A program made the translations under genes and the position numbers. From Raillietiella orientalis (lineage: Eukaryota), in NCBI GenBank assembly GCA_036172245.1, contig JAYWIR010000002.1, positions 1,364,001 to 1,428,000 on the forward strand: a stretch of DNA of 64,000 nucleotides, given 5' to 3'. Shown here piece after piece: positions 19,447-61,894 of the stretch (positions are counted from its first letter, which is position 1; every line of letters begins with the position of its first letter). The notes beneath the pieces were generated by a model that worked only from the letters and a program-made list of their open reading frames with translations, did not search any database and had not been told where the DNA came from.

Positions 19447-19478
19447 AATAAACGTCCCGGCGCAACCAGGTAACAAAC
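19447..19478 (+). repeat. Conserved LINE 3'-terminal motif, copy A
   Basis: AATAAACGTCCCGGCGCAACCAGGTAACAAAC. Confidence 0.8.
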
Positions 19479-19479
19479 G

Positions 19480-21899
19480 ACGCCTGCGGTGGGGCACGGC
19501 GTCGCCGTTACCGCGGCCACTGAGAGGAGGGCTTGTCTTGAGCTTTCGCCACGCGGAACGTTTCGCTCCCCGACTCACCTAGTGCCGGAGGGGAGGCCCT
19601 TGGCTACACAGTTCCTCCTCCTCCGCCGCTGCCGCGCAGGGGGCCAGCCCTCGGCAGGGCAACGGCCGCGTGGACGACAACAAAGGAGGATGCCGGCATC
19701 TCCGCAGAGGCTAGGAGGGAGGGCAGTTCCCGTCGAGGATCCGAGGGTGCGTCCATGGATCCCGGGGCTCCGCTCCCGTGGTTTCTTCGGAGGAGATCGC
19801 TGCACTGATCCTCGCCTACCAGAGGAGAGCGCAGCCTCAGAGCCCTCGGCTCCCTTCGCGCGTCTTCCCGACGGAGCGTCGCGCGCGCGCAAGTACGCTG
19901 CCTGGCGGAATCCTCTCGTGGGAAGCGCCGTGGAGGTAGCGGCGGCGCTGCATCCGGCCTGCACCGCTGGCTACCCAGTTTGGCCTTCTGGGAGTTGGGA
20001 GACGGCTGGTTGCTGCAGGCTGCGCCTGTTTGACTCCCCTACCCCCTCGCGGGAGCCGAATGTCGGGATGGAGAGCGGGGGGAAAGAGGAGCCGCGGCGC
20101 TCCCTACTTAAGGCTGTTCCTGAGAACCGGACCATTCTCTAGGAGACCGAACCCCTCCTCGTCGTATCCCCGCGGCCCACGACGGGAATGCGATGCTACC
20201 AGGGAAGGGGTGGGAGTTCAAGCGAGAGGGGATGGTCTGAGGCGCGTCCCGGACAACATGCGGTGTCCTGCGACCTCGGGTTCGCCAAGTGGTCTGGAAG
20301 GCGCCATTCTCAGCTCTCGCCCCTGCCTCTCTCCCCTCCCGGATGCTCCTCCTCTTGCCACAGCGTCACCTGCGAGGGTGACCCCAGCCCAAGATAGGCG
20401 AGGGGGGAAAGTTAGGGCGATAAATGAATCTTTCGGTGGGGCTCGCAAGGGCAGAGCGACATGACAGCCCTCGAGGGAAAAATAGAAGGCGGGAGACGAG
20501 CGCGCGTCCGGGAGAGGGAGGGGGTGGGAACGAGGAGCGGCCTTTCCAAGCGGTGCCCGCGCTCTCGCACGAAGCCGGGTAACGGCAGGATGTCCGCTCC
20601 AGCCTTCCGAACGGGGGATTGTCCATTCGATCTAAAAGGCGACGGAGGGAGACCAGCCACTTCCACAGGGTAAGCCGCTCCCTCTGGACCGGTCCTTGAG
20701 GGCCGAGAAGGTAAGGGCCACGCTGTCGCTCAACTCCGAGCACCGATGTCCGAGAGCGCGAGTCGTGCTTATAACCGTGCCAACGGGGTGAGCCGTCTAG
20801 GGCACCCGACTTCCTCCAGACCCTGCTGCGAAGGGCAGGGACGCCTAGCCAGACGCGAGCGTACGCCTGGGCCAGGGCCGCTCGCCGACCCTCCCAACCT
20901 TTCCTGCCTGGATGCGATTCCTCCGGAGCTCTTACGGAGGAGGCTGCAGGGACCTCCGCTCTCTCCTCAAAGCAGTGCGCCTCGAGGGCGGAAGAAGCTA
21001 TTCCGGACGGGATCAGCAGCGAACATCTTCCCAAGGAGGGGCACTGCTGCCGCTTGCCCTTCGTTTGGTGCCCTCCGAACTCGGCGGACAGGCGATCGAG
21101 GGGACAAGCTGGCGGCGAATGGGCAACGAGCAAAAGGCGGGAGGCCAAGCAGGCAGCCTGACACATGAAACGAACCGGGAAGCGAGCGCGGACGGGAACA
21201 CGAACACGCGAGCACGACTCGCGGTGCCTGGGGAACCGCGCATCGCGCCTGGACCGCCACAGCCCACGGTCGCGTCTTCCGGCATCTGAGGTGCAGACAC
21301 TTCGTCGGGAAGGCACGCGCGCGAGCGGAAAGGAGGCTTCCCCTCTCACATCAGGCCGCATGTCAGTCGCAGATGCCAGGGAAGGGGGTTGCGAGCTTTT
21401 GACCGGGGGCTAGCCTTCGGGTTTTTCCTCGGAAAGCGGGCGATTCCCGCGAATGCGCGTTTCGGGGGATGCGTTCCGTTGGCTGCATCCTGGAGGCCTC
21501 TTCCTGCTTCGAGGACCCCCTCTTCTCCTCGGACCCTGGAGGAAGTCGCTTCCCTCTCTAGTGCATTGCTCGATCCTCCCGGAACCATCCTGCTTTCCTT
21601 CTGCCGCCTGCGCCTGAGCGACGCGCTTACGTCGCCGCAAGGAGCTCCGACCCAATGCCGACCCAGTGCCGCGCTCTCGAGGCAGGCAGGTGGCGGCGCT
21701 TCCTGCCAGCCAAGTCACCCGGAGCTTCCCTTGGTGCTGCGGGAACGCTGGATGCTGGGCAGAAGTGCACTGACTGATTTCCGGACAAGCGAAGCAGCCC
21801 TTCCCTCAGAACGGAGCTGAGAAGACCAAGACCGGCTTGACCCTACACATGTATGTTTATTTTTTGTAATAAATGTCCCGGCATGACCGGGTGATGAAT
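19480..21899 (+). mobile_element. Decayed, internally deleted L1/Tx1-like LINE (copy B)
   Basis: The knuckle region at ~20240-20330 is similar at DNA level to 14440-14540 (gtcccgg..aca; ctggaag..ccattctc). Also GVSRLGHP (GGLG.P-like) and C-terminal RERWMLG. It ends in AATAAATGTCCCGGCATGACCGGGTGA. Confidence 0.55.
21868..21899 (+). repeat. Conserved LINE 3'-terminal motif, copy B
   Basis: AATAAATGTCCCGGCATGACCGGGTGATGAAT. Confidence 0.8.
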
Positions 21900-22056
21900 C
21901 CTTGACTTGAAGAATAAGGCGCACCCTCGGGTGGCTTGGGCCGTGTTAAGGAGCACTGTGAGACCCCCTTACGAAGGCAGACGGTTCTTCAGATGTCTTT
22001 ACGTGTGAAAGAGAGAGTGCGCGGATGCTCAGAGGCGACGCGGAAGCCTGCGTGCA

Positions 22057-22088
22057 GTTTTTTACCCGGTCACGCCGGGGCGTTTACT
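22057..22088 (-). repeat. Conserved LINE 3'-terminal motif, copy C
   Basis: Minus strand AGTAAACGCCCCGGCGTGACCGGGTAAAAAAC. Confidence 0.8.
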
Positions 22089-23085
22089 TTATAAAAAATG
22101 AACCAGTCGGGAACACGCTGGTTCCCAGCCGAAGACAAAAGGAGTTCAAGGGGAGGGTCCACCGACACGCAAGTCGGGATAAGCAAAGTCCGGAAAGGGG
22201 AGGAAATAGGGGGACAACAAAAAAAGTAAATCTGATGGGATGGTGCAGGGACCTTTGTGTTCGCTCTGTGCGCACGAAGGTAAAAGCAAAAACACCGGAG
22301 AAGTTACAGAGCGAATGGGAATGGGGAATGAGAAGACCAAAAATAAAGGGAGGCAGGGGACAAAGGTCACCGGTGTCCTCCGTTCCTTTCGGAACCGGAG
22401 CGCTGGATGCCGGCGATCTCATCCTTCACTTCTTGGTCCAAGCGAAGCCACCTAGTGCACCGCCGCCGCAGCACATCTTGGGCGGTATCCTCCTGGTGCA
22501 GGAGCTCTGATGCTCACCCCAGCCACGGTTGCTGGAGGGCACCGCGGTCCAAAGACAGGTGCGGGTCGAAGGCTGCGTGTAGTCAGCGCACCCCTGAGAA
22601 GCAAAAACTATCTTGGAACCTTCTCCTGCGGCCTGGGAGCAAGAAGGAAGAGAAACGGCATGCCTCTGGCCTCTGCCAGCATCCTGATCTTGGAGTCTGC
22701 TCCGCTGACAACGGATGCAGCAGCCCAGACTGCGCTCGAAACGGCAGGCGGGAGCAACAGGAACGTCCCTTTCGCACCTGCACTGGCTGCCTAGCGTCTG
22801 TGCAGGTGTGTCCAACATCAGCAGCCCCCCCCCACACACACAGGAAAACCAAAGACCGGTACGATTCCATCTGTGATGCTGGTGGAGACATCTGTTTTAG
22901 GATATTCTCAAGGGATGTGTGTCCCAAGCGATTCGTCCCCAAGTTCGAAACGTGACAGACGCTCATGGTGAGGACGACCCGCGCTGGGTCGTCAGGATGG
23001 ATGTTGGACTGAAACCAGGACCCCTCGCACGGACTTCCCCTTTTCGGAAAAGAATGGCAGAATTCATTCAATTTGAATTCTCAGC
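22057..23085 (-). mobile_element. 5'-truncated LINE (copy C; ORF2 C-terminus + 3' UTR), same subfamily as the end of copy A
   Basis: Minus strand aagaagtgaaggatgagatcgccggcatccagcgctccggttccgaaaggaacgg aligns with copy A aagaagtgaagacggagattgccggcattcactccggttctgcgaataggaacgg (19226-19281). The terminal hairpin motif is at 22057-22088. Confidence 0.7.
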
Positions 23086-23092
23086 AGATGGC

Positions 23093-23124
23093 GTTTGTCA
23101 CCCGGATTTGCAGGGGCATTTATT
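23093..23124 (-). repeat. Conserved LINE 3'-terminal motif, copy D
   Basis: Minus strand AATAAATGCCCCTGCAAATCCGGGTGACAAAC. Confidence 0.8.
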
Positions 23125-26100
23125 ACTAAAAAAATCATAATAAAAGTCGTAGATATTACAAGTTCGTGGTATCACGGGCGAAGGACTTGACAAAAACCGG
23201 TATGCGGACTGGTGAGGTCCGCTCCAGCAACGAATGCGGAGGGAAAACCACACAAAAAAAAAAAAACAAAAAAAGAGGAAGGGATCACTGTTCGCCTGGA
23301 GACGTCCTCTACATCCTGTCCAGGATGCTGACAAAAATGTGCTGTTTTTACATTGCCCAGGTGGGGCCATCTTGACGCGGTCTCCAAAAAAATCCTTACC
23401 CAGTGGATGGCGTCCCCGCCATTTCGGCCTCTTCTTGTCGCGTTCCAGCGTACTAAGACTCCGCGGATGCAACAGGGAACTGCCAAGGACGCAGCTGGAG
23501 GCAGATGGCGTTGGGTGCAGGAAATGACCAGTGGAATTGCTCTTTGATTACCGTAGGGCATTTAAGCAACATACATAAAATTATAAATATTTAATTCAAT
23601 TCTGTTGAAAATAGCCAATGCATATGATTTAACATGATTTCATTCGGACGATCGATCCTTATTAAATTAAATATATTTATGTTAACCAGGATTATCAAGT
23701 GACATTTATGATGCTGCCTTTATAAGAAGGGATAAAAGACATGCCCCAAGTTATAGATCACATAAGAGTTTGGAGGAATAATCTTGATGGCTGTTCCGTT
23801 GGCGAGATTGGGTGGTAGTGCTCCGCGGACGATGGCTGAAAGCCGCCATGAGGCGGTCTCCTGCAACGAACCACCTCCAAAGCCGATAACCGGAGACATG
23901 TTTTTCCAAAGCGCGCGTATGGAAGAGGAGAAACGATCCATCCTCATCGACCTCACCAAGAATGCAGTGTCCTTAGTTGAGCCCTGCAGTGTGCCTCAAG
24001 TTGGAAGACTGCTTCATCGATGGAGGCGCTTCCGTCTTCGTCACCGCTGCTGTCAGAGACGTACCAACTCCAGACCATCCGTGGCTCGCCCCTTTGAACC
24101 CACCCGAATTCACTTCCCCGGGAGAGCTCGGTAGGCTTTTCTGAGTCGTGAGACCAAGACGCTGTGACCTTGGGAGGGCACACTGGAGGAAGGGAAGGAA
24201 GGGGGGGGGGAAGTAACGCCATGGCTGCAGAAAGTCCGTCATCAAAGATGGCGAAACAAGCAAGTCAGCAGCTGTCCAAGAATCAGATCCTTTTCATTGT
24301 CTTTTCTTCAAGGCTTCCAGGGTTCTTGAGGGAGGGATGATCGTCCTGGGATGGTGGCTTTTTTTTTGTTTTTTAAGCAAAAAATAATTATACATGCTCC
24401 TTCGGAAGGCAGGGGGAGGGGGAGGAAAGGTTGCCATGGAGACGGCTTCGTAAGGGCGTCCGGATCCTGCCCGTGGTGTCCGGACGGGGTCGGGAGGGCG
24501 GCGGCGAGAGAACAGGGAATGGAAGAGAGCGCTGGAGCGGTAGTCACCCTCCGGTGGAAGGATGAGGCGCGTGCTCGTACTTTCTCCCCAACGTGGCGGC
24601 GGCGACGGCACCACCAAAGGAGACCTTTCGGTCGCCGTCCGCCCCCCCCCCCCCGTGGCCACTAGGAAGGAGTCCTTTAATTCCCCCAGGTGGGTTCTTT
24701 CGGGAGTTCCTCTTCGGCCGGGGATGGTTGGAAAGGGAGCCTCAAATAGTTTAGGACTCACTTCCTCGGGATGCTCTGGTGTTTTGTAGCCTCGGGTCGG
24801 AGAAAGAAGTTCCTCGAGAGAACGTGAGGTTCTCCTTCCCATCTCACGGGGGAGGGGGGATGCGAACCTGCGCGGCATAAGGGAAGAATAAACCCGGCGT
24901 CGGGGTCCCAGTGTGACCCGGCTGGAAAAGCAGTGTTGGTCTCTCCGAGGAGACGGGTACCCGGGCGGTTCCCTGTTTCGCAGTTCATTTAAAAATAGTA
25001 GACGCGTATCTCGCATCTTGCGGCTTCCTGGCTCTCCGTTCTTCTCCACGACCGCAGGCAGGCGATGGCTTGGAGGGAAACGCTGGTGGAGTCTCTCCTT
25101 GGATGATGCGAACGCCTCCTCTCCCCCGCAAAGGAGCATCCCTGCCCCCTGGCGGATGGCAGCAGATGCCTTCATCTCTTTTCCGGATAGCAGAGGAAAC
25201 GCTCAGGATGCGATTCCTCGTGAGCGCGCGCGGCTACCCCACGAGGTACTCTGGAGTCCCTTCTTTGTGGACGAGGCAGAAACTCGCCAAAAGGGAAGAG
25301 GCTCCAGAGGGAATGCCCATTTTCGGGGTGCCAGGAAACTTCGGGAGAGCAGAAACGGGATGAAGGCTCCTCCTCGCAGCCAGAAAGCGCAGCATCCCAC
25401 GACAGCTTTTGGGGGGGAAGGGGATTGGCTCGCTCGACGGCCGCTGCAAATCCGATTCTGCAAGAGGCAAGTGCCGCCTCGGGATGAACTGAGGCGTCAC
25501 CCAAAGTGATGATCTCGTGACGCGCGGTTCTTCTTGGTCGTGGATCCCGGCGGATCACCCGAGTTCGTTCTGGCGGGGCACGAGAAAGCCAGGTAACCCA
25601 AGGAAGAGCTGGGTTACGCATGGGACTACTGCCTTTGCCTTCTCTCTGGCTCCCCTCGGGCGCTGAGCGAGAGGAAAGGGTTAAACGCTGGTTGCTGAGG
25701 CTTTCGATTACGCGACAAGGGCCGAGGCTGACCGGCACCCGAGGGGGAGCACTGGCACCTCTCCGAGACTTATCCCGGCGGCGGGGAGTGAGAGCGCTCG
25801 GTGCGCCTGGATCCACCCCTAAAAATCCCGGCGGCGGGATCCTCCTCCTTTTTCCCACGCCACTCCTCGTGAGCTTCCAGGATGCTCTCCTGAGCCGATG
25901 AAGAATCAGCTTCCGTCCCTTTCCAAGAAGAGGAGGCAGAGGAAGAGGATCAAGGAAGATGATGATGAAGGTGGGGACGAGAAAGAGGAGAGGCAGAGCG
26001 CGCGTCTCAAGGATGCTCCCCCTCCCCCACAGGGAGAGCAGCTAGAGACTGTTGTCGTCGCCCTTCCTCGCGCCACGTTCTTCCCACCACCTCCTCCTGA

Positions 26101-27950
26101 ACGAGCGCATCGGGAAGGACGGATAAACGCTCTCCCGGGTGGACCTCTGCTCATTCATATTAGAGGGTGGAGGTGTACCCCCAGGGTGCTTCCCACAGCT
26201 GCTGAGGCCCTTCTTCATGGACGACACTGGGACCTCGTCAACAAAGAAGAGACTCCGGAGGAATGTCTGCTTCCGGGGTTCCCCTTCAGGTTTTCCCCCT
26301 TCCACCTCAGTCGCTGAGATGAGGAAAAGGGAAAGGGGGGAGAGGTGCCCTCACTCAGCCGGGAATCGCCTCGAGTGGAAGGGAACATGGCCACCTTGAG
26401 GACGCCGACGTCCACACCATTGGCAGCGGCGGGGTGGTTCCCTAAGCTCTGGGTGACTCGGAGGTCGAACCGGAGACCTCCTGTCCCCTGCACCAGGGCA
26501 GTCGAAGGAGTTGTCCCACCCGGGTGCCAGGAGGAGGAGGGGCAGAGAGAGCAGCGAAGCGGAGCTGAGCCTTCACCCCGCTCGGCAACAGCAGGAAGCG
26601 TGCCGCCTCCCATAGCCGCAGAGGGGGTGCGGGGAGGGAGGGAACCACGGACGTCCCCTTCCGGCAGCATTACCAGCAGCCTTTCCGGCCCCCCGTCGTC
26701 TTCTTCAAGAGGAGGGGGAAGGTCTGCATATGAAAAGTAGGAAGGGGGGGGGGAGGAAGAGGAAAGCTGGAGGCAGTTCGAGACGGAAGGCCAGGTCGGG
26801 TCGGACCAGCGGCGGCGAAGGACCCCGCAAAGATGGTCCAGCGCGGGATCCTCCTTGAATTCGGACTGCAGGTAGTGGGGAGAGTGCGGCTGGCGAGTCT
26901 GAGGAGTCGCCTCTGCACGGCCCTTCCTGGAAGGGGTCCAAGGGATTGCCTGCCTCTTCGAAGCTAGCCCGCGGGGACGGGCGAGTCAGGAAGCGGGAGG
27001 AAGGAGATCGGCGCGCGTCTTTCCCTTCCCTCCTTTTACTGCTGCTCCTCGGCCTCCCTTCCTTCCTATCCCCAGGAACGTCTCCATCGGCTGACTTTCG
27101 GGGGAAGAGAAGGGGGAGGGAGGAATAGGGGAGGGAGGGGAGGGAGGATAGGGAAGAGAGGTCATCCCGGCGGAAGAGCCTCAGAGGGAGAAGGTGGAGC
27201 TAGGGATCGAAGCGCAGAATGCGCGGGAAGGGAATCGGAGGAGTGGGCGGTTGGGAGAGAGCAAGATGCCGGGAGCGGAGCGCCCGCGCGCGGCTCGCCG
27301 ACGCGCTATTTCGGGATCAATGGCAGAGGCTCTCTCCCCGCCCGCATCCCGGCGGGGCGGAAAGCGGTGGAGGTCGCACATTCTGGCTCGCCGCTCCCTC
27401 CCGGAGGCGCTTGCCTCCTGCAGCTCCTTCCTCCTTCTTCCTCCCCCCTTCTTTTCCTGCATCAGCGCAGGGGAAGCCAGCATGCGGCAGCTCTCACAGG
27501 TCCTCTCCTGCCGGGAGCTCCCGAGAGCATTCGACGTCGTCACCGCCGCCGCAGACGGTCCCGGAGTCATTCCTCTGGTCCCTTGGGGCGGTGCTTGGAG
27601 TGCCCTCCTCCGGAAGAAGGAAGCCCACGCACGGGAGCATCGTCCTCTCCCGCATGGGCCAACCAGCTGCCACCGCCCCGGGCGAACGCATGATCTGGAC
27701 TCCTTCCCTTCCGCCTCGCCGGAGGCTCGCGCGTGGCCTCTCTCCCTCCTCCTCATCGAGCATGCGCAGATCTCCTCGCCAGGAAGGGGTCGCCGGAATG
27801 TCATCCGAATCTCCCTCTCTTTCTCCCCCGCACCGTCCACTCCCTCTCGCCCACGCCCTCCTCGTGCTTTCGAGAACGCCAGGCGCTGCGACGGGGGACG
27901 TAGAGTAGTGACCTCCTCCACCTCCTCCGGCCCCTGGGGTCTCAGACGCC
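23093..27950 (-). mobile_element. Near-full-length decayed L1/Tx1-like LINE (copy D), with an AT-rich interruption at ~23560-23720
   Basis: Minus strand in order: RQERTCESC (ORF1 knuckle), NGVDVGVLK, SSGVS, SVYP, GDDN, SLSNQR (APE motifs), WDPDAGF (PGPDG-like), LHGNLSSP...RRSM (RT4), GEVN (RT6), CCIRGV...RWPHLG (C-terminus), and the terminal hairpin motif at 23093-23124. Confidence 0.65.
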
Positions 27951-27959
27951 ACTCGAGGG

Positions 27960-28740
27960 ATACGGGCGTTCCTTGCGAGTACGGGAGGCCGGAATCTTCT
28001 TCCTAGATGGAGAGAGCGCTCAGTTCTCCCTGGAAACTGCTTATTCGTCCTCTCTCCAGAAGAACGATGGAGAGAAAGAAGAAGAAATCAAACCGCAAAG
28101 AAGATGAAGGAAAGGAAGAAAAAGGAAACGGGATGTTTCTTGCAACAGCAACAACAAACCATGGGAAAGGGTGGGAAACAGAAGAAGAAGGCGTGGCGAA
28201 AACGGGCGAGACAGCACGTGAACGGCAGTCGCGGAAGAAACGCCTTGCCAGCCTGAAGGGCGAGCCGCATCCGCGGGAAAGCAGCTCTACCGAAGGTGAA
28301 CTCTCGCACACCTTCCTCCTCTTTCGGCTACTCACCGGTTCCGCGAGCGCTTGAAGCTTTGAAGACCCCAGCACGGAGCTGCCGCCAGCCCCAGAATTTA
28401 CTTCCATTGCGAGTCGCAGCCCTTCGCGGGCCACGAGCCCTTGACAGAGAAGGAGGCATCACAGAGTCCGTTGGAGGATTCAGTGCTTTCGATAACTCCG
28501 TGTACCAGTTTCCTGCCGTATAATTCCCGACGGACGTACCATCCTGAGCGCCATCTCTGCGCACCTGCAACGCTTCGAAATCTGGACGCTTCCCCCCTCC
28601 GGCTTTGATGCTCCGATTCCGGGCTTCTGCGGATTGAGTTCCAAGTTCAGCCTTTCCATTCATCTCTGTTTCCAAACCTGGGAACGGCTGGCGACAGGGG
28701 TGTTGCGATCCTCAGAATGGCAACCGTGCACCTTCTTCCT
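27960..28740 (+). mobile_element. L1/Tx1-like ORF2 linker fragment (between APE and RT)
   Basis: SPWKLL (cf. WKLN..LL), KGWETEEEGVAK...SRKKR, LDREGGITES...SVYQF. The sequence is decayed. Confidence 0.35.
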
Positions 28741-29249
28741 CTTTTTCTATCTAAGTTCTGTCCCGCATTCGGATAACTAAGACGTATTTCTGTTATTCAT
28801 TTTCTGCATCCTGCTTGCATCTTACATCTTCGAGCCCAAACCACGCGCTGTGTATACGGATACATTTACGTTTTCCTGATGGGGAAATGGATTTCTTATT
28901 TTTAGAATTTGGCCTTAAATCACGAACCATGATTCTCTGGCTACTGTTCTTAAGCGGGAAATTTTTTGGTTTAGCTTTTCCGCTTCTTTCCAGGGCACCT
29001 CGAGCTTTAGAACCCTTGGTCTCCTTCTTGGAAATATCTTATTTTGAACGATTTTTCCCATTTAAACCTTCAGATGTTTCTTAGTCATACGTAATGAATG
29101 GCGAAGTTGACGGTAATTATTTTCAAAAAATGCTTTAAAGACCTCATGCCTGTGTCACTTCATGGAAATAATGAGCAACCTTTTTAAGTTCGTTCGTTCA
29201 GGAACTTCGAATTAAGACTTTTGTTTCGAGAAGGAACACAAAAAGTTGT

Positions 29250-29269
29250 TATATATATATATATATATA
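29250..29269. repeat. (TA)n microsatellite
   Basis: tatatatatatatatatata. Confidence 0.9.
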
Positions 29270-32593: not shown

Positions 32594-32909
<316 letters not shown>

Positions 32910-33122: not shown

Positions 33123-43708
<10,586 letters not shown>

Positions 43709-43772
43709 TTTGTATCGGCAAATAAGAGCGTGATGCTGCGTTAGCATTGTGCCCCAATTCAGATGTTTAGCA
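43709..43772. promoter_or_regulatory. Bidirectional promoter / overlapping 5' region of COQ5 and CPD
   Basis: Divergent ATGs at 43708 (-) and 43773 (+) are separated by 64 bp. Confidence 0.7.
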
Positions 43773-46700: not shown

Positions 46701-49700
46701 TTTCTATGCATAAAAGGCAGATAAAGGACTTGGTTTCTAAATTGTTGATGCATGCTTATGATTGCACAAAGTATTAGTGACAGTTTCTGAGATTTTGTTT
46801 GCATTTTATCAAGTAGTTTATTTTGGGTTTAAGAACTTACTCCCATTATGTTATGGCTAGAGCATAATAACGTAATCATTTGGAAACATGAAAATCATTT
46901 GGAAACTGATTGAAAAAATGTTTTCAGAAAATCATCATAAATTAAACACGTTGTTTATGAAAGATCAGATTTGATAAATTTACTTACTAAACACTCTGCA
47001 CCACGAATATCAGTTTTTCAATTATTTTCAATTATAAGGATGGTCATCATCAATGATTAGTAATGGTTGGAGATTAATTAGCAATTTTAAAATGAACTCA
47101 GCAAGTACCTGGAAATCATAAATTGATGGTTTTATTAGGACTGAGAGTATAGTGTTTTTTTTAAATAATGCATCACTTGATAGCAATCTGTGAATGCTGT
47201 GTTAAGAAGCCATCAGAAAAAAAAAAGTACTCAAGATCAAAATTTAGAAGCTACAAAAGAGAAAATTCGTTTTTGGTAGACATTTTAACTGTGATAAATG
47301 CCAAACAAAACTTGAAGCAGCATTTTAGAATGAACTGATGGTTGTTCTGACAGATAAGGAAAACAAGATGGTGGTATGAAATCCGCATTTTAAAAAGGTT
47401 AGCTCAATGAATGTATGTGTTATAATAATAGTGAAGTAAATTTAATAATCAAAGAATGAATTCCATGTTTGGATGTGTTTTGCTATTTAGTAGATCTGGG
47501 AATTAAAACAAATCAAACAGGATTAGAATCATCTCAGTGACACATCTCAGATTTTTATGCTCAGTAAGAATCTCAGATCTTTCACAAAGTTAGTTTTTCC
47601 AGTCTAGAATCGTAAATGTACATTAGGAAACAAAAGTAGTTTTTCTTGTAGACTGCATACTTCCGGTAATTCCAAGTATAGTACTATTGCTATTATGTGA
47701 AAGTGAATAGTTGGAAATATATGTAGTGTTCTCTTGCAAAAGAACGTTCTTGTGTTGCTTAATGCCAATAGAAGTCAAACAGTTGGCTTCTTTTTTTTTC
47801 TTTCTTTCTTTTTTTTTCAACTTAATTTCATGATGAAAAATAAAAAGATTGAGAGAGCAATGGCATACATCTATTGCAAGATTTCCAAGCTTCATTTGTA
47901 GGCGCATAGATATCGGTTGTTTCAGTCAAATAGTGACCAAAAATAACATTAGACATCTATAGTCAAGTAAAAACATCACTAAAGAGTACATTACTATTAT
48001 AGTTCATTAAATTAAGTGAAATAGAAATAAGCAATACATACAACTTTTACATTTCGATATGCAGGTTTTTTCAAGAATTAAAAATTAGCAGGAATTGGTG
48101 AAACAGTGAGGCAGCAATGAAGGTAGACCAAAAAAATTTTGAAATTGCCTAGAACTACTGCAAGAAAAAAACAGTCAAGGATATAAGTGTATACACAATT
48201 CATTTCAAAAAGAATGAAATTGAGGAAAAACAATGAAATTGCACTTTGGTCTTTTGCAAAGTAGTTGAGAACAAGAAGTGGATCAGTGGCCCATCTTTCC
48301 AGAACATGTTGTTCATTGGATGAACAACATTTGCAACTTGCCACAGAATCACAACAGCATGCTTACACAGATCACAAAAGTTACATAGTTTTATTACTTA
48401 TGCAATTCATTGGGAATATTATTTTCCAAAAGATAGATCATCAACATATTATCTCAATGCATCTGAATCATTATGTACATGCATTTAGAGTTATCCATTG
48501 AAATTAAAATGTTTCGATTCTAATTACAATTTCACTTGTGGAACATGCATGTGATAAAATTAAATTATATTTTACTTTTTGTTTTCATTAGGATTTTAAT
48601 TGGTATTATTGTATTATGTTCTTATTTTTGTTAAAAATCATTTTTAAGCCATTGAGACCATAATTATCATTCTATAAATGCCAAACGAAATGAAATCTGA
48701 GGCACTCTAATGGGCAATTTTCAAAATTTTCAAAACTATATGATTATGTATTGTATTTTCAGTGTTGTTCATTAAACCGTTCAGTGATAATTTTGAAAAA
48801 GAAACGATGGGAATACATGCTTATAAACTGCTAAACTCTGGTCCCCATTCTAGCGCATAATTCTTTTGCCTTTTACTAACGAATTTTGTGGATGGGAACT
48901 TCTAACTGATATTAAATGTACATTTCCAGTATCCTGAATTGATGAATTATTAAGAGAAAAGTGTATATGCCTTCGTTTTTAATGATGTCATTATAGTCCG
49001 TAAATGATGACAAGATGTCCCTTTTATATAGGTATTTGCCATGCTATTTTGTGCTAATAATCATATCTTTTGTGTCTTTTGTTTCATATTTAAACTATTA
49101 TATTTAAGATTGTAACGTTTAAAATTTTGAGATTTTATTGGCATTTGTATTTCTTGCAAAAGATTCTTTAGAAAAGTGTTTTATTGATCCATTGTGTCAC
49201 TCATGGGCTTGTCAGTTCATTATATTTGTTCCATTCTCGCATTGGTAGTTCCTTTTTTAGAAACTGTAGCAAATGAGTTATGTAAGCAATGTAGCTTGAG
49301 AAAGTATTTCTCATTCCAAGGAAAATTAAAGTTGTTTTCTTTGAGCAAGTTTTCCAAATCAAAGTAAAAACAGCATAGTCATGTTGGGGTTTCCAGGAAG
49401 ATTTATGTAGTAAAAGTGAATGATGTGTTTAATGAACAAATGGAAACTAAGAGGTGTACTTGCATAGTCCTGTGAAAATAAATGAAGCATAAAGAGTAGT
49501 CTTTCAAAATGAAATTTAAGACAATTTGTTGGAAGTTCTAAAAGTATCCTAAAATATGTAAGAGAATTTGTCTCTGTTATGTTACAAGTTAAGTGTAATT
49601 AATAGAGTAATGGCGTTTTAAATCATATTTCGATTACATTTCTGTTGAGTTCAATCAAGCTTTTAATTTTATTGATTTTTTAAATGTACATTTCAAGTTT

Positions 49701-52700
49701 TGTTAAATGTATGCTTGTTTACGACAACCAACTTTTGAAGATGATTCTTCAGCGTATTCTCAGTTACGTTTTGTTTTTCGCAAGCAAACTAAATATAGCA
49801 AAAGCATCATAAATTTGTTTCTAGGAAAAATTTATGAATGTGAAAGTTGTGAACTGAAAAGAAGTTGTCAGGACATGTGTTGGTTAATTAACTTCATTTA
49901 GAAAACATTTTCCATATTTCTGGACAGATAATCATATACCATAGCAAAATGCTATTTTATACTTTATTCAATAATTTGGAAGTGCTTCAAATAACATTCG
50001 TTGGAAATAGAAAACATAATTGAATATATTTGTATTTGGATGAATGAATGTTCAAAAACAAAACATGATTTTTGAAATGCTGGTGATAGTAGGCCTATTA
50101 CGGTGATCTTGGAGCGAGTTAGCATAGATTTTTTATAAGAAAAAAATGAACTTGATAATGCATCGAACAATAATTCCTTTGTTGGTAGAAATGGATGGAT
50201 ATTTAATCAGTTTTTCTGACATATATATGCAGAAACGTGAACAGTAGGAAAAGCATAATTTCAAAATTGATGTATTTCATATTTTGCTTTATGATTGATT
50301 GCTGTGATTCAAGCATCACCAAAGCATTAGAAAAAAATTTTCATTTTGCAATGGTAGACATAAATTAAACTCCTAGGTGGTTATCCTCAGTAAATGCAAA
50401 GCAGTGCAAGAATGATATGCCCTTGCACTACTTTGCATCAAAAATCAAGATCGACATAAACATGATCGTGGAAGGTTGTCTAGTTTACATAGGTCTATGA
50501 GATTTACCTTGAATAACTGATGTAATAAAAGAGCTGCCATAGTGAAGTTTTTGTGAATACTGAAGGTTGTGTTTTTAGTTGTGTATGTTTATGTGTGCAT
50601 GATGTATATTGCTTATTTGTGCAACAGTATTTCATACAAGTATGTTTTCTGTGTAATTCTTTGTTTTAATTATATCTATTTATTGAAGGTATAGTTCGTG
50701 ATGCTGTTAATTTTAAAGGAATAGCAAATGCTAGAGTGATGGTGGAAGGTGTACCACGTGGTACAACAACCACAGTTTATGGGGAATACTGGCATTTATT
50801 ACTCCCAGGCACATATAATTTATTAGTATCCGCATCTGGGTAATAATGCTCTTTTATTGATTATCAGACATTTCATAGTCTCTGTACCTCAGTTATCAAC
50901 CAACTCGTATTCCCAATGTCAAAGTGGGATCCACTATGTACACACCAAAGGATATCTATCTCATGTTACACAATAATAAGGACGGAACTTCCGATTTGTT
51001 GCCTAAAAAGGATTGTGATGAATGGCACTATCACAATTATAGTACAATGGAAAACTTGATGAAAACTGTGCACCATACGTGCCCTGATATTACTAGGTTA
51101 TATAGTATCGGAAAAAGTGTACATGGACTTGATTTATTAGTTCTGGAAATATCAGATAATCCCGGAATTCATGAACCAGGTTTTATCAGTTTTAGTGCAC
51201 TGTAGATTTATTAGATTTCTTTGCATTAGGTGAACCTGAAGTGAAATTGGTATCTAACATGTATGGTGATGAAGCAGTGGGACGAGAATTGTTACTCAGA
51301 TTAATGCAATGGCTTTGCACAGAGTATCGTATCAATTTGGAGGTGATGCAAATGGTGCATTCTGTTAGATTGCATCTTCTACCATCACTGAATCCAGATG
51401 GATTCCAAAGTTCTAAAGAAGGTTGTTAAATTATTTGTATTCGAGAGACATTTATTCACCTAGATAATCCAAAAACAGTCTTGCAAAATGGAGGTGCACA
51501 TGGTGTTGATCTGGATAGAAATTTTCCAGATCGTTCAAGTCTATTTCAAAAAGTAAGTTTATTGAAAAGTCTGAAGTGAATCCCATTCAACAGCAAAAAT
51601 AGAATTCAGTGCCAGAAACAATGGCAATTATGAATTGGACATCACAAATTCCTTTTGTTTTATCAGCCAATCTCCGTGAGGGTGCACTACTAGTTAGCCA
51701 TCCTTTTGATACTGGACCTTTAGATTCACAGCGTGAAGATGCCAATGTTTCTCTGGATACCAGCATTCTATTCTTCTTAGCTCAAGTTTATGCCAAGGTA
51801 AATAAATGTGAATTTCTTTGCTCTTGTAAAGAATACCTCAGAATCATCCCGACATGAAGAAGGCATTGGCAGGGTTGAAAATTCCCGAGTGTCCAGATAC
51901 TGGTTTCCAGGGAGATTTTGTAAATGGGCAGGCACAGTACAAAACACCTGGAAGCATGCAAGATTGGCATTATTGGTATACCAGTTGTTTTGAATTGACA
52001 ATATACCTCAGTTGCCAGAAGAATCCACCTTTCTCCCAACTACCAGAACTTATGCAAAAGAATTATGTACCTTTGCTTTTATACATCCAATCAGTGAAGC
52101 AAAGTCTCAATGGATTTGTAATGGATGAAAGTGGTCATCCTGTTGTGGGAGCATCTATTTCTGTCCATGGTTTGCAAAAAGTAGTGCAGTCTTGGCGTGA
52201 TGGAGACTACTGGTGTTTGTTGGTGCCAGGAAGTTATAAAGTGGAGGTGTCTGCTGAGAATTATATACCAACTCTTCAAAGTATTCATGTTGAAGAAGGA
52301 GGCGTTCAGATAAATTTCACAATGTTTCGAGATTTTTCTTATATCAAATCTCAGTTCAAATTTGCAAGTGAGAAAACAGTATACTTGGATCATTTGAAAA
52401 TTGTTCAAAAACTCACTCATTTGAGTAATACTTATCCTCTTTTTACACATCTCATGAGTCAAAGAATAGAAGGAGAAAGCGATATGATTATCTTACGGAT
52501 ATGCTTGGTATTTGGAGCTATTTTCATTAAAAATTGTGATGCAAATATACTTTCTCAGAATGATGCTGTCAGTGAGACTTCAAAAATTAAGGTCGCCATT
52601 TACGGTGAAAGTCAAATTCTTAGTGGTGAATTGGTGTGGAGGTTTGCTGATCACACCTGTCAAGCATTAGCAAGAAAAGATTGGTCTCTGCTACAGTTAT

Positions 52701-55700
52701 TTGAGCATATGATTGTGTATTTCATTATTACTGCAAGCAATCATAGGGGGGAGTGGCAAACCCCTTGCTCAACTGGCAGCCCAATGTTGGACCCCTTGTT
52801 GGAAAAGCCATCTAGTAAATTGAATGTCTTACACAAAGTGCTTATGAAAAATGATGTTCGATTTTTATTAACATATCAGGCAGGAGGATTATTTATTAGG
52901 TGAATTTGGCAGATTCTTTAACTTTTGGTTATTCGTATTCAGAACTCCATGGGATAATCCAGATGAACGTCAAAGTGATATTGCAGATTATTATTTTTTC
53001 AATCACATTGCTCGAAGTTATCTTCAAGCTCAGCCCAAAATGGGCAAGGAAAACTTGTCTGTTTGTCAAGAGATACCATCTGGGTAAGGTGCATAACTTA
53101 TATTCCCAGTTCCAAGTGCATAAAATTTTTTCTAGTTCCTCCTTTGGAATTGTACGAAACTATTGGCAAAAAGAAAAAAAGAACACATTCATGGATTTCA
53201 TATATCAAAATAATAGAATTTTAATGGTGAGGAATCTTTTTGTTTGCTGCCAACGTATTTTTTGGTGAACTGAACTTTTCTGCTGAATTTATTAAAATTA
53301 TAAAGTTTCTTGGATGATGAGTGGAATTCAATTTCTGCACAGAATCTCAGTGCAGTGTACAATTATATTTTAAAGATAGCTGGAACAAAGAAGTAGTTAT
53401 GTAGCATTGATTAAAATCATTAATACAACCTTAATAGGAGTAAGCATAGGTTTTGCTTTAGGGTTGAAAAAAATCCAAGTTAGTCAAGGTTTTTTCTTGT
53501 GTGTTTGTGCAAACTGTGCACATTTATTGTGAAGTACTATTTGTGATGTTATTTCTATGCTGTGAATTAACAGTCCAGTCAATGATTTCTCTGCTTTGGT
53601 ACTTCAAGTATTTTATAGTCATTATCAGTTGATAAAGTTTGCCAAATCAAAATGCAAAATAAGTATGACCTTAATGGTATTTTATTTCGTTTCATTTTTC
53701 TCATAGGTAGAATTTGAAGGTTTGATGCATTTTGATTTCAGATTTTCTAATTGAAATGTAAAGTCTTGATTGAATAAAGCAGTATGTAACAGTTGATACT
53801 AATTTTTGATGATGCAGTTGATATGCTCGCAATCTACTCAATGGTTTATGTTTGGAAGCTGTAAGAAAATGTATTTGTTGTTTCGTTAGATGAGAACACA
53901 GGTTTAAAATTTCACTCAATTTTTATAATATTTTGGTTTCAACAACTATGAAAAATTTGGCTGTATGAATATTTCATAGAAATTTCATAGAAACAAAAAG
54001 CAATAACCTGAGTAGAGACGAGAAAGAATTTGTCAACATATTAACTTGCTGCAGCAGGGAATTGATATCATACCTGCCCTTGTGTATTAATCAAAATGCA
54101 TTCTTAGTATCAATGTAGCTGCAGAAGCCATTAGCGAATTTTGTGTACGCAGTTGCGGAATTGATTCTAGTAAAACAAGGAATAATGATGCTTATAACTA
54201 CCAATAGAACTTCATGTATTAATATTTGTGCAATTTTAAGAACTTTGTTCTTTTACTATTAATTTACTGTTTAATTTTAGTACTTTTACGATTTAATTTT
54301 TCCCATTCACATAGTTGACATTATTCAAATTGATTAATGAATGGGCAGGTACATAAGATGCTAGTAATCTTACCCATTATTCTCTCATTGGTAACTTAAT
54401 TCATACTTTAAATTGTATTAATTTATTTTGCATGTTGTAGAGTACAACTTTCACATGCACATAAACAAGAATCAGTTTCATCTTGTCTGCATTATTGCAC
54501 AGTATTATACATTTGTCTATTTGTCATATATATGTACTGTATTCTAGTTAGTATTATTTAGCTCTGGTGGGAAATTCAGGTTCTTATTTGTATATTCTTT
54601 CCAGTTGCCTGTTCATGTTGCCTGTTGTGAACCCTATACTGGAAATTTATCACATCTTTGGAGTCAAAATCTAGATGCTTCATTAGCTTTTCTGAAAGCA
54701 GTGCAAAAAGGTATCTCAAGGAGTTGTTTATGAACTATTGGATATGTGTATGCTAGGAGTCCTTGGGTATGTGATTGATTCACATGGCCTACCACTGTCA
54801 AATGCCACAGTTCGAATAATTACTAACAATAGCATTATCAAAATCAATGTTACCAGTGATGGACAGTTTTTATATTTTTTGCAAGAAAATTCCTCTGTTC
54901 ATTTAAACATAATGCTGGAAGGTTATGAAATGCAAGACCAGCAACTTGCTTCCAATGATTCAGGATGGAAGTTCTTGAAAATCGTGTTGAAAAAAGTAGT
55001 TTCAAGAAACCCAGTCTATTCTAACTATCAACAAGTTATTGCTCTTCTCTCCTCTTTGTCTGAGAAGTATCCAGAGCTAACTAATTTGTACAGGTGGAGG
55101 TGGTGTATGGTCGTCTAAGTAATTTTTAATGCCTGTTTTCAGTATCGGAAACACTCAGATGGGGAAAGAGATTTGGGTTTTGACAGTTGGTGCCTTCATT
55201 GGTAGTAGCATTAATTTGCAGCTGGATATGCAGCTTGTGTCTGGAATTGGTATGTGTGACTCAATTGGAACAGGAACTCTTCTGGATTTAGCCCAGTATC
55301 TTCTTGAAGAATACCAGCGGAATGTCTCAGTGGCATATGTAAGAATAGTCCCATGAGTATTGGATGTATCTTTACTTTGCTAGCTTCTCAACCATTCACG
55401 TATCCATATCCTTCCTATTCTTAGCCCAGATAATAATTTAAATGACTTCTGTAAACTTAAGTGTGAAAATGATGCAAGCTTATCTATTACCGATGAAAGT
55501 AAGTGTATACAAGATTTAAACCATTCACTTGAATTGTTGTAGAGCAGGTATGGTCTTCTTGGCTAACATGGCAACAGACTGCACCCTATGTATTATCAGT
55601 GTTTTTGAAAAGGGGGCAAGTCACTGCCCAAGATTTTGTAAATAGTACTGAATCAAAATGTGGCCCTTCAGATAATTTTACCAGCCATGGTTTGGCTGTT

Positions 55701-57019
55701 TTATATAGCACATTTCTAAAACGGAGCTCGATGACCTCCAATTATTGCACTTGGGAACCACAGCACAGCTCTGGGATGGTAGTAGATCAAGGATTTACAA
55801 TACAAGATGATGTACTGCTTCATTATGGATATTGCCATCGTCTTCATAAGTTAGTGGTTCAATATGACTGCTGTTCAGAATCAGCCAAGGCAATAGAAAG
55901 ACTTAGACAAGCAAATCAGCAATCCTTGTTGAAAATTTTATTGCATATGAAAAAGATAGTTCAAGGTAAATCAGTGCTTTTTCATGTTGCCTGAGCTCCA
56001 TGTAGGTAGAATATTGAACTCGTCGGGAAAGGCAGTAGCAAACGCCAAGATATTGCATTTGGGTTCAAAGCAATTATGGCTAAGCCAACCTGGTGGTTTG
56101 TTTTGGCTTTTTCTCCCAGAAGGACAGCACTCTCTACACATATCTGCTGCTGGTTATGAAAGCCAAATGCATACTATTCATATATTCAGCAATGAGACAA
56201 ATCCACTGGTGGTGACAATGTTGCCAGCTCCAAAATCTTTAGATATGTTCTGGTTGTTTATGCTAGTCGGAACTGGTAAGTACCACAAGTTTAGATGACG
56301 TTTCGAGGTAGCATTTAAGATGTTAATAGCAAGTAATTATTAAAACTCTTTCATTATTGTACGTTGAAAAATATTCAGCATTTAAGTAACCATTGCAAAG
56401 ACCCAATTTCCTCTGATTGTGGAAACTGATAAGTTTAATATGATGCAATAAGAAGATGCGAGCACTGAACAGGTGCCCTCGAAGTTTTGGAAATAATTAG
56501 TAACTTTGAAATTATTTTTATTATTAAATTTTTTTTTTTCTTTCTCTTCAACTGTCAGTTTTAAGAACCACCGAATCCGGAACATTTAAATAAATTTAGG
56601 TAATGTAATGCAATGACTAAAAGATTACTGGATGAAGTAAAAGGTCTAAGCAAAAAACTCATGGTTTGCCTTTCTTTTTAGTGTTTTTCATCACCGGATC
56701 TCTGTGTGTGCTCCTGCTTTATCGGCGATACTGCAGAAGAAGCAAGGAAATTCGTTTTTCAAGGCTCGGCTCCAATATAAGGTTTAAACGTGGATCCGCA
56801 GCCTCAGATAGTGATTCCGAAGACGACTTATTTCTGAAACCACGGTTACACATTCCGATTAAAGGTAGGAAACTGTACTTCTGGATTTTTCCCTTTTACA
56901 TGTACGGTGTAAGCAATAAGAATGTGGCACGCCTCGGCAGCAGAATGCATTTTGTCATCACTTTACAATTGGTTTCTTTTGGGAAATCTTTCTGTGTCGA
57001 GTCGATTGCTACTACCTGA
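43773..57019 (+). CDS. CPD: Carboxypeptidase D (M14B, silver-like): signal peptide, four CP+transthyretin-like repeats, TM helix, acidic cytosolic tail; ~20 exons; 3' end uncertain (possible donor at ~56864)
   Basis: [14 protein letters not shown] signal peptide. Domain I has [56 protein letters not shown]. Further repeats start at ~51020, ~52370 and ~55010. [26 protein letters not shown], tail [10 protein letters not shown]. Confidence 0.93.
44245..44281. repeat. Perfect 17-bp inverted repeat with 3-nt spacer in CPD intron 1
   Basis: ATAAACCGAAGTATGAA-TAT-TTCATACTTCGGTTTAT. Confidence 0.9.
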
Positions 57020-57049
57020 AACTTTGTTTGAGGAAATGGGAAGGCATGT

Positions 57050-59149: not shown

Positions 59150-61860
59150 CATAATCTGAATTGGCTTAGAAATCAATGCAATTTCTATATGCTCCATCAT
59201 CTCAACTCCATCCATTCTATTTTCAACACATTCTACAGGAAATGCGACGGGAAGTAAAAGAGGGGCGAGCGCTGGAATGGAAGAGCAACGCGAAGAGTTG
59301 GCTGTGCTTTTCCCCTTACGTGACGCAATCCACATCTACTAGTTGAGCGCAAAGTTCCCGTTAATGGAGGCGCCCCTCCCCCTCAAGGCGTTCTCTTCCA
59401 TGTCACAAGTTCCAGCAGTTTACGTGGTTCCAGCAGGTTGGCGGTCGTCCGCCGAAGCTTATCTGTCTGTCGATTCCACCGACGCCCTTTTTCGTTGCGG
59501 TTTCGGTGTGGAACCACTGGGAAAGTTGTGGAACGAGGTAAGCTCCCACACTTTCGTGTCTGAATTAGTCTTCGGTCACATTGGAGCGAGTAGCCGAAGC
59601 ACTTAGCAGCGACCAAAAGGTACAGTTCAAGTAAGTAAGTAACGCAAAGCATTGGCTGAAAAAGGTGAAAGTAAAATGTGTCTTCTTACTATCGACTTTT
59701 CGTTTTCATTCGTACCGATCAGCCATTCATGTGTTGCAAGAACAAGGCGCTGGAAGGTCTTCTAAATAATAAATGGTAATGATGGTGATGATCCCTGTTT
59801 TGTCCCCTCATTGGCCAAGGAAGGAAAAGTTCTTCCGCCGCGTCCTCTACCTGTCACCTCAGGCAAAAGCGCCTGTGTTCGTTCCGAATGGCAAAATTGC
59901 CTCCGTTGCCAGTGTTGTGAGAAGAGGTCCTCAGCACCGAATGTCCGTGCGAGGACTCTGACCTTCCGTTGAGATTCCAGCTTCCTGAGCGGTACGCGTT
60001 GCAGGTGCATCCCGATAAATTCGGTTCACCGGAACCTCGGTGGACAACCACGAATCCGGAATGCAACTTGCTGGAACCTGGACACCACATCGCAAAGCAG
60101 CATCGTGATTCCCAAACCCTTTTTTTCTGGCGTTCAGCTTTCCCAGAATTGTCGAGCAAGTGCAATCTGCCAAGGGTGGAAGATAAAACGAAAATGGCGC
60201 CTGGACTTGCCCGAAGAAGCCGGGCATGGTGGCCACTTCCGGGTTCCGCTGCTGACTGCTGCATGCGTGTTCGTGTTTCAGGTCGTGCACAAGCTCGGCA
60301 GGAGTCGTTATGTCACGGTATAAAAGGAAGAAAAAAAAAAAAAAAAGAGTTTCACTTGGACCAGATGGCTAGTGATCCCTAATAGCCTCCTCGCTCCGAT
60401 GGGAATGACTGAGAGCTTGAACTACACCGCTTGTTAACCAAAAACAAAAAACAAAACGCCATTTGATTGATCTTATGAAACAGATCTTTTCCCTGTACCT
60501 TTCCAGGTTCAACTTGATGATTACCATCATTATTTTGTTAATAATATATGCATTTGTTTTCGCTAACAACTAACTCACAAGAGCACTCGGTAAGCATCCT
60601 GCAGAACAGGCTCAGAAGCAACGATCGTGCAGCATCTGTAAAAGCTTCCACGTCCAAACATGGAGTGTTGGAAGGTGCACTGCTCCTTCGGTGCACATGT
60701 GCCATTCGTGAGTCCCCTTTACTTCACGGAGCGCCCCTCTATCTAATCGGAGATCTCAGCCGATCTCCGTTCCCAGCGCCGGGTTTTCGTTTCAGGCATA
60801 CGTAATAAACGTGTAGATGCTGTGTGCATGTGTAATGGACACATCAATCGTACACTCCTATCTCAATTTCGTAATTGATTTTTCCTCCCCCTACGCTCCG
60901 TGGGAAGTTGGCCGAACTGCGCGGCGCGGATTGCGTCGCCTTGCAGTGTGCGTTCACGCAAATGGGTGGTGCGCTCCGGCGGATCACCTGCGCACGCGCG
61001 AAGCCGTGCCGGGGCTTCCACCGAACGCATTCGGTTCCTTTGGCATCCGAACTCGCGTTCAGGTCTTCCTTTTCGCCGTGGTTAGAATCCCCCCCATCCC
61101 CTCCTACACTCGGTCGTAGCGGGTGATCTTCCGATGGAACTGCTACGTATCTACGGCGTTCTAAAACAACCCGTAGGTATCCATCTAACTTGGATGACGT
61201 TGGTTTTGCTGTTTCTTTGGACGCGCAAAGCTGGCCGCAGCTGGAAATTCTTCCTGCAGCCTATGGAGGAGGAAGGGGAAGGAGGGGGAATGGTAAAAGA
61301 AAAGCTCTGCACCAAGGAGAAACTGTCCCCGACGGAGAACGATTTTAAAAGAGAGATGGTTCTCTCCAGCTTCTGTGTCAATCGGGCTTGCATGCATCGC
61401 CGGGTCTACGTTCATTGCTCGAGAGCGGCGAAAGCGCGCCGCGCAGGTGCGAGGAGCCGGCAAACGGTCCCAAGAGCACACATCCAGGCTCTGCGTGTCC
61501 TGAAAGGTGTGGGGCCACTCCAGGTGGGCTCGCGCTTCGCGGGAGATGCGGGCGCAGACTTGCGTTTCAGTTTCGCGCGAACCTGCGCCAGAGGGAAACA
61601 CACAAAGAGGAATGCCCTAGAAGGAAAGGGAAGCCGTGCTTCCCGAGGAAGAAGGCCGGAGATTGCTGACACTCGGGCGCAGGCCGCCGACGTCCGTCGA
61701 AAATCAACGGGAAGCCTCGAAGGCTCGCGGGCGTGCGCTCGCGCTGCTGGTGCCGGTGCGAGCGAGCCCACCGCGAACTGCTGACTCCACCGTTGGATCT
61801 CATCCGGAGCAGTCCTTTGAGTCTTCATCCCTCATGGCAGAAATGATCATCCAGTCCTTC
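59150..61860 (+). pseudogene. Second decayed CAR-like (A-[T]-R) gene copy, truncated at its 3' end by LINE copy E
   Basis: A-domain remnants MVATSG/SAADCCMRVRVS (TSGSTG.PKGV-like, ~60230), SPLLHGAPL (~60720), QMGGALRRITCARAKP (LGG.LR.I.TGGAP-like, ~60965), IYG (~61150). There is a 17-nt exact match TGTCCCCGACGGAGAAC to 344-360 at 61324-61340, and AAACGGTC..AGGCT(T)CTG is shared with ~666-694. SSLMAEMII resembles SKW.AE. Confidence 0.5.
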
Positions 61861-61862
61861 GG

Positions 61863-61894
61863 AGTTGCCACCCGGTCACGCCGGGGCGTCTATT
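61863..61894 (-). repeat. Conserved LINE 3'-terminal motif, copy E
   Basis: Minus strand AATAGACGCCCCGGCGTGACCGGGTGGCAACT; 20 nt are identical to copy C (22064-22083 vs 61870-61889). Confidence 0.8.

Follow-up and report, generated by a model that had tools for sequence, protein, structure and literature searches.

Conserved 3' stem-loop tails define the stringent long interspersed nuclear elements (LINEs), and the stringent mode has been demonstrated for ZfL2 and UnaL2 (PMC4176376). Conserved 3'-end hairpins have also been described for LINEs belonging to the L1 clade, namely Chlamydomonas L1-1_CR and the LINE1-1_ZM group of monocots, and were interpreted there as stringent recognition of the RNA; a 3' block of ~45 nucleotides (nt) had a divergence of 0.144 compared with 0.570 for the rest of the element (Ohshima, 2012; PMC3472496). 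For human L1 and Alu, it has been proposed that a 3' stem-loop acts in recognition by the reverse transcriptase (RT) (Grechishnikova and Poptsova, 2016; PMC5135761). Here we describe a 30-nt block built around a GC hairpin, which is present in six copies (designated A to F) in a stretch of 64,000 nt of Raillietiella orientalis DNA (GenBank assembly GCA_036172245.1, contig JAYWIR010000002.1, positions 1,364,001 to 1,428,000), referred to hereafter as the window. Target-site duplications (TSDs) identified this block as the actual 3' end of a retroposed element, and we consider it reasonably probable, at roughly 60%, that it is the 3'-terminal module of a non-LTR (lacking long terminal repeats), LINE-like retroposon family with a hairpin that is recognised by the RT.

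Identification of the terminal block

A first-pass annotation of the window had listed a hairpin motif at five places as the common end of diverged LINE copies, and all five were recovered by pattern count, alignment and profile. Ten matches to the pattern CCCGG-N5-CCGGG, allowing at most one mismatch, were counted in the window where 0.95 would be expected, and none of 100 shuffled sequences reached 10. Five of these matches were the sites already listed (A to E); the other five lacked the flanking motif with the exception of the match at 16976, which belonged to a further and more diverged copy, the sixth (F). A profile built from the five copies recovered A to E in a search of the window at E-values of 1e-11 to 3e-10, and the same profile matched copy F using nhmmer (16971-16998, minus strand, E 0.003). 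A covariance model of all six copies, run with filters off, identified no seventh copy in the window, the next match scoring 11.6 bits compared with 41-51 bits for the six, and neither profile nor covariance model revealed a further copy of the tail in the window that might mark a partner short interspersed nuclear element. Reading and alignment of the sites gave the common consensus ARTARA-YG-Y-CCCGG-N5-CCGGG-TRRMAA, preceded by U-rich sequence. The hexamer AAUAAA, exact or one base off, was found in all six copies, with a U-rich tract upstream of it in B, C and D.

Target-site duplications and extent of the copies

The sequence 3' of each hairpin was compared with up to 8 kb of upstream sequence on the same strand, and 3000 positions drawn at random from the same GC-rich blocks (described below), taken at the same offset, served as a control. 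TSDs of 11-16 bp starting exactly 6 nt past the stem were found in four of the six copies (A, C, D and E, with lengths of 13, 16, 11 and 13 bp; Table 1). Matches of the class seen for A (exact match of 11 or more) arose at 7 of the 3000 control positions (0.2%), as did those of the class of D (7/3000, 0.2%), while the classes of C and E arose at 12/3000 (0.4%) and 28/3000 (0.9%), respectively. Since the TSDs bracket the motif at one fixed offset in four of six copies, the retroposed element truly terminates with this motif, as the first-pass annotation had proposed, and its end lies 6 nt past the stem. The hairpin does lie between AAUAAA and this end, which falls 24 nt after the hexamer and carries no poly(A) tail.

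The 5' ends of the four TSD-defined copies differed and their 3' end was common, and no terminal repeats turned up when the window was compared with itself. TSDs of variable length, 5' truncation to differing extents, a common 3' end and no LTR or terminal inverted repeat (TIR) are hallmarks of target-primed reverse transcription. The copies are retrocopies with truncated 5' ends, flanked by TSDs, and have in common a 3' end that lacks a poly(A) tail; what had been taken for long LINEs are fragments of 406-1175 nt as delimited by their TSDs. The sequence directly before the TSD was TAACAA, TGACAA or TGGCAA, with two A's each, and TAAAAA in copy C, with five A's; none of the four had the poly(A) ending of a relaxed L1-type tail. 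The dinucleotide AC opened three of the four TSDs, which is why the first-pass annotation read the terminus as CAAAC. Its observation that similarity stops ~8 nt past the stem was correct, but the last two of these bases (AC) belong to the TSD in A, C and D, placing the end of the element at 6 nt. Apart from this leading AC, the four reconstructed target sites were unrelated, so that insertion was not site-specific and nothing resembling Tx1-type target specificity was seen.

A host target repeat or the TIR of a DNA transposon would also present a palindromic core on both strands, as found here. The motif, though, was located inside the TSD-bounded insert and at its 3' edge only, with no inverted partner at the 5' ends, TSD length varied from 11 to 16 bp and the four empty sites were unrelated. 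The TSDs 6 nt past the hairpin therefore leave the chance of either origin practically nil, and contradict the host target repeat that had been named in the first pass as the finding that would overturn its interpretation.

For copy F, a duplication of 12/14 was found at offset 6; the extent derived from it is tentative, because this class of match arose at 142 of the 3000 control positions. A match of 11/12 for copy B, at offset 12 and 4.2 kb upstream, was judged to be due to chance and clashes with the tentative extent of F.

Table 1. Terminal blocks, retrocopies and coding remnants of the retroposon family in the window (positions are those of the window).
Feature	Position	Strand	Description
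Copy A terminal block	19447-19476	+	Identified by alignment
Copy B terminal block	21868-21897	+	AATAAA, perfect stem, loop CATGA, tail TGATGA; extent of body not defined by TSD
Copy C terminal block	22059-22088	-	Identified by alignment
Copy D terminal block	23095-23124	-	Identified by alignment
Copy E terminal block	61865-61894	-	Identified by alignment
Copy F terminal block	16970-16999	-	GATAAA, one G.U in stem, tail TTAAAT; nhmmer E 0.003
Copy A	19017-19476	+	460-nt 5'-truncated retrocopy; TSD 13/13
Copy A TSD ACGACGCCTGCGG	5' copy 19004-19016, 3' copy 19477-19489	+	Perfect, 13/13
Copy C	22059-22567	-	509-nt 5'-truncated retrocopy, A/C subfamily; TSD 14/16 at 22568-22583 and 22043-22058
Copy D	23095-23500	-	406-nt 5'-truncated retrocopy, D/E subfamily; TSD ACGCCATCTGC 11/11 at 23501-23511 and 23084-23094
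Copy E	61865-63039	-	1175-nt 5'-truncated retrocopy, longest of the six; TSD 12/13 at 63040-63052 and 61852-61864
Copy F, possible body	16970 to 18813	-	TSD only 12/14, offset 6; extent tentative
Copy A coding remnant	~19024-19272	+	Decayed C-terminal region, two in-frame stops, followed by a 201-nt 3' untranslated region
Copy E open frame	61847-62671	-	274 amino acids, including a Cys-rich stretch

Conservation of the block and of the upstream sequence

Averaged over the 15 pairs of copies, ungapped identity within the 30-nt block was 73%. In the 200 nt 5' of the block mean identity was 55%, equal to the shuffled baseline (51-56%), and only the pair A-C (70%) rose above it. Upstream similarity linked A with C (66% identity over ~230 nt, E 2e-12) and D with E (60.6% identity over 269 nt, E 4e-11), while in comparisons among the six copies the upstream sequences of B and F matched no other copy. 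The division into at least three poorly alignable subfamilies (A/C, D/E and B), noted in the first pass, was thus borne out by pairwise similarity, as was the persistence of the block next to 3' untranslated regions (UTRs) that cannot be aligned. The block was kept in active lineages of at least three subfamilies whose other 3' UTR sequence had fallen to background, and retention of a terminal block across otherwise diverged lineages is what is seen in tails of the stringent type.

Coding remnant and its relatives

The alignments indicate that a homologous, decayed C-terminal coding region precedes the block in copies A, C, D and E, in agreement with the coding C-termini reported upstream of the motif in the first pass, their assignment to ORF2 apart. 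Copies D and E share the peptide ...AA.LA..CCIRG(I/V)..W....FL..A.RWPHLG, and the frame of E carries a C-x2-C followed by a further Cys. Decay is evident from in-frame stops in copies A and C and from a frameshift in copy D. When the 274-amino-acid frame of E was used in an exhaustive HMMER search against 1.84 billion representative proteins, a single relative was returned (E 5.7e-15), an unnamed metagenomic open reading frame (ORF) of 87 amino acids, designated P0002, which forms a singleton cluster and is located on a contig of 2870 bp. The homology of A to D, E and P0002 was collinear and began right after the 5' TSD of A, and C could be aligned to the coding region through A. In pairwise BLASTP comparisons the strongest similarities were E-P0002 (3e-16) and D-E (5e-14), followed by A-P0002 (4e-5), A-D (5e-4), A-C (7e-4) and A-E (2e-3). 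P0002 bridges the two types of ending, RWPHLG in D/E and E[IL]AGI in A/C.

Among longer proteins, neither the 274-amino-acid frame of E nor a profile of the D/E/P0002 region had a match. Searches with back-translated patterns gave 358 pattern matches in metagenome contigs and 47 in viral contigs, of which none was confirmed in either set. A scan of metagenome contigs with the DNA motif of the block yielded 18 loci with unrelated flanks, 14 of them at 55% GC or above; these were judged to be chance matches because the covariance model, at E-values of up to 10, picked up 15 of these loci and scored them at only 15-26 bits, compared with 41-51 bits for the six copies.

Copies B and F showed only a short, non-significant resemblance to the remnant at its extreme C-terminus, which we regard as tentative. 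If these resemblances were real, the length of the 3' UTR would range, tentatively, from ~50 to ~300 nt with the block fixed at its end; the 3' UTR of copy F looks very short. Near the C-terminus of E, a language-model search of the Atlas placed 4 of 30 matches in clusters with zf-RVT in 25% of members, which we treat as a lead only. Pfam gave no zf-RVT match in the copies even at E<=10 on short pieces, a profile search of the PDB was empty, and the AlphaFold model of the C-terminus of E was unusable (predicted local distance difference test score, pLDDT, of 38).

Class of the element

Six-frame Pfam scans of 12001-19500, 19401-29000 and 59500-64000 (~21 kb of GC-rich sequence, stops read through as X) contained no match to RT, endonuclease or zf-RVT, and Pfam was likewise empty of retroelement domains on the long ORFs of the GC-rich blocks and on short pieces at E<=10. 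The copies are only 0.4-1.2 kb long as judged by their TSDs, and RT is therefore not expected inside them. An endonuclease of the apurinic/apyrimidinic (APE) or restriction-like (RLE) type was not detected by Pfam, and the copies are truncated far downstream of its expected place. No RT sequence by which the family might be placed in the L1/Tx1 clade was detected in the scanned regions, and the only relative found, P0002, is a C-terminal fragment of 87 amino acids.

Two other origins bear on this point. The copies might be retrocopies of non-autonomous or host multigene transcripts with a conserved 3' end, mobilised in trans by another LINE, which would be in keeping with the failure to see an RT, with the mRNA-like AAUAAA, and with a shared coding region that belongs to no Pfam family and has one 87-residue metagenomic ORF as its sole database relative. 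Six copies within 64 kb, with variable 5' truncation and no poly(A), are nevertheless unlike the processed pseudogenes made by relaxed LINEs, and a tail that is kept when the rest of the UTR is not is the pattern of selection for retroposition, making this origin decidedly improbable. Another class of retroelement with 5'-truncated, TSD-flanked copies, for example Penelope-like elements, might also be considered, as no RT domain was detected by which the element could be classed. Penelope-like elements form partial tandems, and the head-to-tail neighbours in the window (A by B, D by C) superficially look like such an arrangement. Each of A and D, however, is a single insert with its own TSDs, so that their adjacency is explained by separate insertions; Pfam scans were empty for GIY-YIG and RT, and a scan of Rfam at gathering thresholds found no hammerhead ribozyme, its only match being a U5 RNA. 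We therefore judge a Penelope-like origin to be very unlikely.

The hairpin and its possible role

Alignment confirmed the stem as first described, perfect in B, C and E and with one mismatch each in A and D; that of F contains one G.U, which is read on the sense strand and is the sole stem variant that preserves pairing. Pairing is preserved in 28 of the 30 stem cells of all copies together (93%). The loops vary (CGCAA, CATGA, CGTGA twice, CAAAT and CGTAA), as had been noted for the first five copies, and are also partly conserved: the first position is C in all six and the last is A in five of six, CGTGA being the loop of both C and E. The palindromic form of this conserved block is suggestive of an RNA hairpin.

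For a LINE-like family with an RT-recognised hairpin, we propose that the conserved AAUAAA, 24 nt upstream of the terminal CAA, would set the 3' end of the transcript. A distance of 24 nt from AAUAAA to the end fits the canonical spacing of poly(A) sites. The RT would recognise the adjacent GC hairpin and cDNA synthesis would start at the end of the unique sequence and not on a poly(A) tail, which would correspond to the stringent mode of L2-clade and some L1-clade LINEs. The TSDs of 11-16 bp together with the 5' truncation are the footprint of target-primed reverse transcription, and the AC that opens three of the four TSDs may reflect either a short microhomology of the nicked target with the RNA end or a nicking preference.

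Several observations weigh against this proposal. Compensatory stem changes, a check named in the first-pass annotation, were absent, with 0 of 5 pairs changed on both sides and 3 of 5 invariant among six copies, which are too few sequences for such a comparison. The minimum free energy (MFE) fold of the 86-nt context held the hairpin in only three of the six copies (5 bp in C and F, four of the five pairs in E), and fold z-scores ranged from +0.05 to -1.95, none of the six being exceptional. Recognition of the sequence itself, or a palindrome acting at the DNA level, fits the stem data equally well. Copy B has no TSD at offset 6 and that of F is only marginal. AAUAAA predicts a polyadenylated RNA, yet the copies have no A-tail, and the proposal would additionally have to assume that the tail is bypassed by the RT. 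Neither an RT nor an endonuclease domain was detected in the scanned regions, the designation LINE being based on the insertion hallmarks alone, and the sample comprises six copies from one 64-kb window.

The same features could be explained if the block were only a signal for 3'-end formation or stability of the RNA, a poly(A) signal with a hairpin that positions cleavage or protects the end, and not a target of the RT. The tail-less end of the copies would then be the end of the RNA itself, for example non-adenylated as in histone mRNAs. The non-adenylated end of histone mRNAs is situated a few nt past a stem-loop. The occurrence of AAUAAA or a one-base variant in 6/6 copies, the U-rich tract before it in three (B, C and D) and an end at CAA 24 nt downstream, fixed at 6 nt past the stem in four copies, all agree with such a signal, which leaves unexplained why the unique end is the exact start of cDNA synthesis. 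Experiments on other LINEs have tied the conservation of a terminal block across lineages to recognition by the RT (PMC4176376). A role restricted to 3'-end formation appears to us unlikely, although the two roles are not mutually exclusive.

Both could be combined in a dual-purpose terminus, in which a hairpin placed after the poly(A) signal and ahead of the cleavage site would define an RNA end 6 nt downstream, with little or no tail, in the manner of the histone stem-loop, and would also dock the RT so that priming starts at that end. We offer this as a speculative and, on balance, improbable arrangement; if true, it would constitute a third route to the template end of a LINE, next to poly(A) and terminal microsatellite repeats, and this in a lineage of retroelements for which public protein data contain hardly any relatives.

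A second small hairpin was observed ~10-35 nt 5' of AATAAA in three copies, at 19417-19435 on the plus strand and at 22105-22130 and 61925-61939 on the minus strand. Its sequence is GGGAAC...GTTCCC with differing loops in A and C and GGCCC-TAGTG-GGGCC in E, and it is present in the predicted MFE folds of C and E; it may be an additional structural element of the tail.

Comparison with known systems

The family shares with the L2-clade elements UnaL2, ZfL2-1 and ZfL2-2 a short conserved block, here a putative stem-loop, at the extreme 3' end that is kept while the UTR diverges, and with L2-clade stringent LINEs in general the 5'-truncated copies, the TSDs and the lack of a long poly(A). L2-clade stringent LINEs terminate in a short tandem repeat, for example (TGTAA)n, whereas the family described here ends in a single URRCAA without a repeat; to our knowledge, an AAUAAA immediately preceding the hairpin is not known from L2-clade stringent LINEs. 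As in LINE1-1_ZM and L1-1_CR of the L1 clade, the 3' block is far better kept than the rest, a likeness judged by description and not by sequence. The study of those elements saw compensatory changes in the stem, of which none were seen among the six copies here, and Chlamydomonas L1-1_CR as well as 224 of 233 flowering-plant L1 families end in poly(A) repeats, unlike the four TSD-defined copies (PMC3472496). Human L1 is of the relaxed type and needs a poly(A) tail; the copies here are tail-less and terminate at a constant spacing from the hairpin. SART1, of the R1 clade, is telomere-specific and poly(A)-ended, whereas these elements are found at varied sites and have no tail.

The statement in the first-pass annotation that this arrangement was not recognised as described was too strong, because conserved 3' hairpins define the stringent LINEs and have been published for the L1 clade (PMC3472496). 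An AAUAAA before the hairpin in combination with tail-less copies had no match in the literature searched, Repbase and Dfam being outside that search, which makes this weak evidence of absence; an AAUAAA that is conserved 24 nt ahead of a 3' end lacking a tail may be an unusual detail. It poses a small puzzle, in that a conserved poly(A) signal accompanies copies without a tail, and either the RT avoids the tail or the RNA has none. In comparison by description with the nearest candidates, this is a new retroposon family of the ordinary, known stringent-tail type. A TSD-verified 3' end is hereby defined for an undescribed retroposon family of a poorly sampled, AT-rich eukaryote, adding one more case to the evidence for structured 3' tails in the majority of LINE lineages.

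GC-rich blocks and other features of the window

Two GC-rich blocks (12500-28500 and 60000-64000) have a GC content of 55-65%, compared with 30-40% in the host background. They contained no Pfam domain in any frame, no 3-base codon periodicity and no paralogy between or within blocks. The possibility that these multi-kb blocks are LINE bodies was rejected on these three grounds and on the size of A and D: the TSDs bound A and D as ~0.4-kb inserts, and the surrounding GC-rich blocks are therefore not their bodies. For annotation this means that the large GC-rich blocks in the window should not be assigned to these elements. They may be very old, decayed repeats that host the insertions of copies A to F. 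A stop-free frame of 522 amino acids is present at 14137-15705 on the plus strand. When the block was simulated with a first-order Markov model, only 1 of 300 runs attained this length, but the frame has no Pfam match and a low Atlas score (0.76) and is probably not a gene.

Outside these blocks, an exon at 10075-10632 on the minus strand codes for an RNA-binding domain of the RRM type (PF00076, E 1.2e-14). The plus strand carries, over 43734-56300, at least two or three tandem paralogues of M14 zinc carboxypeptidases with a carboxypeptidase-regulatory-like domain; one of their exons (51830-52903) had no relative among longer proteins in a word-indexed database. A U5 spliceosomal small nuclear RNA gene (48833-48948, plus strand; Rfam RF00020, 41.8 bits against a gathering score of 40) is located between the carboxypeptidase paralogues. 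The AT-rich host sequence also includes a direct repeat of 63 nt with 84% identity (37544-37606 and 39148-39210) and a palindromic stretch of 53 nt (44237-44289) with 83% identity to its own reverse complement.

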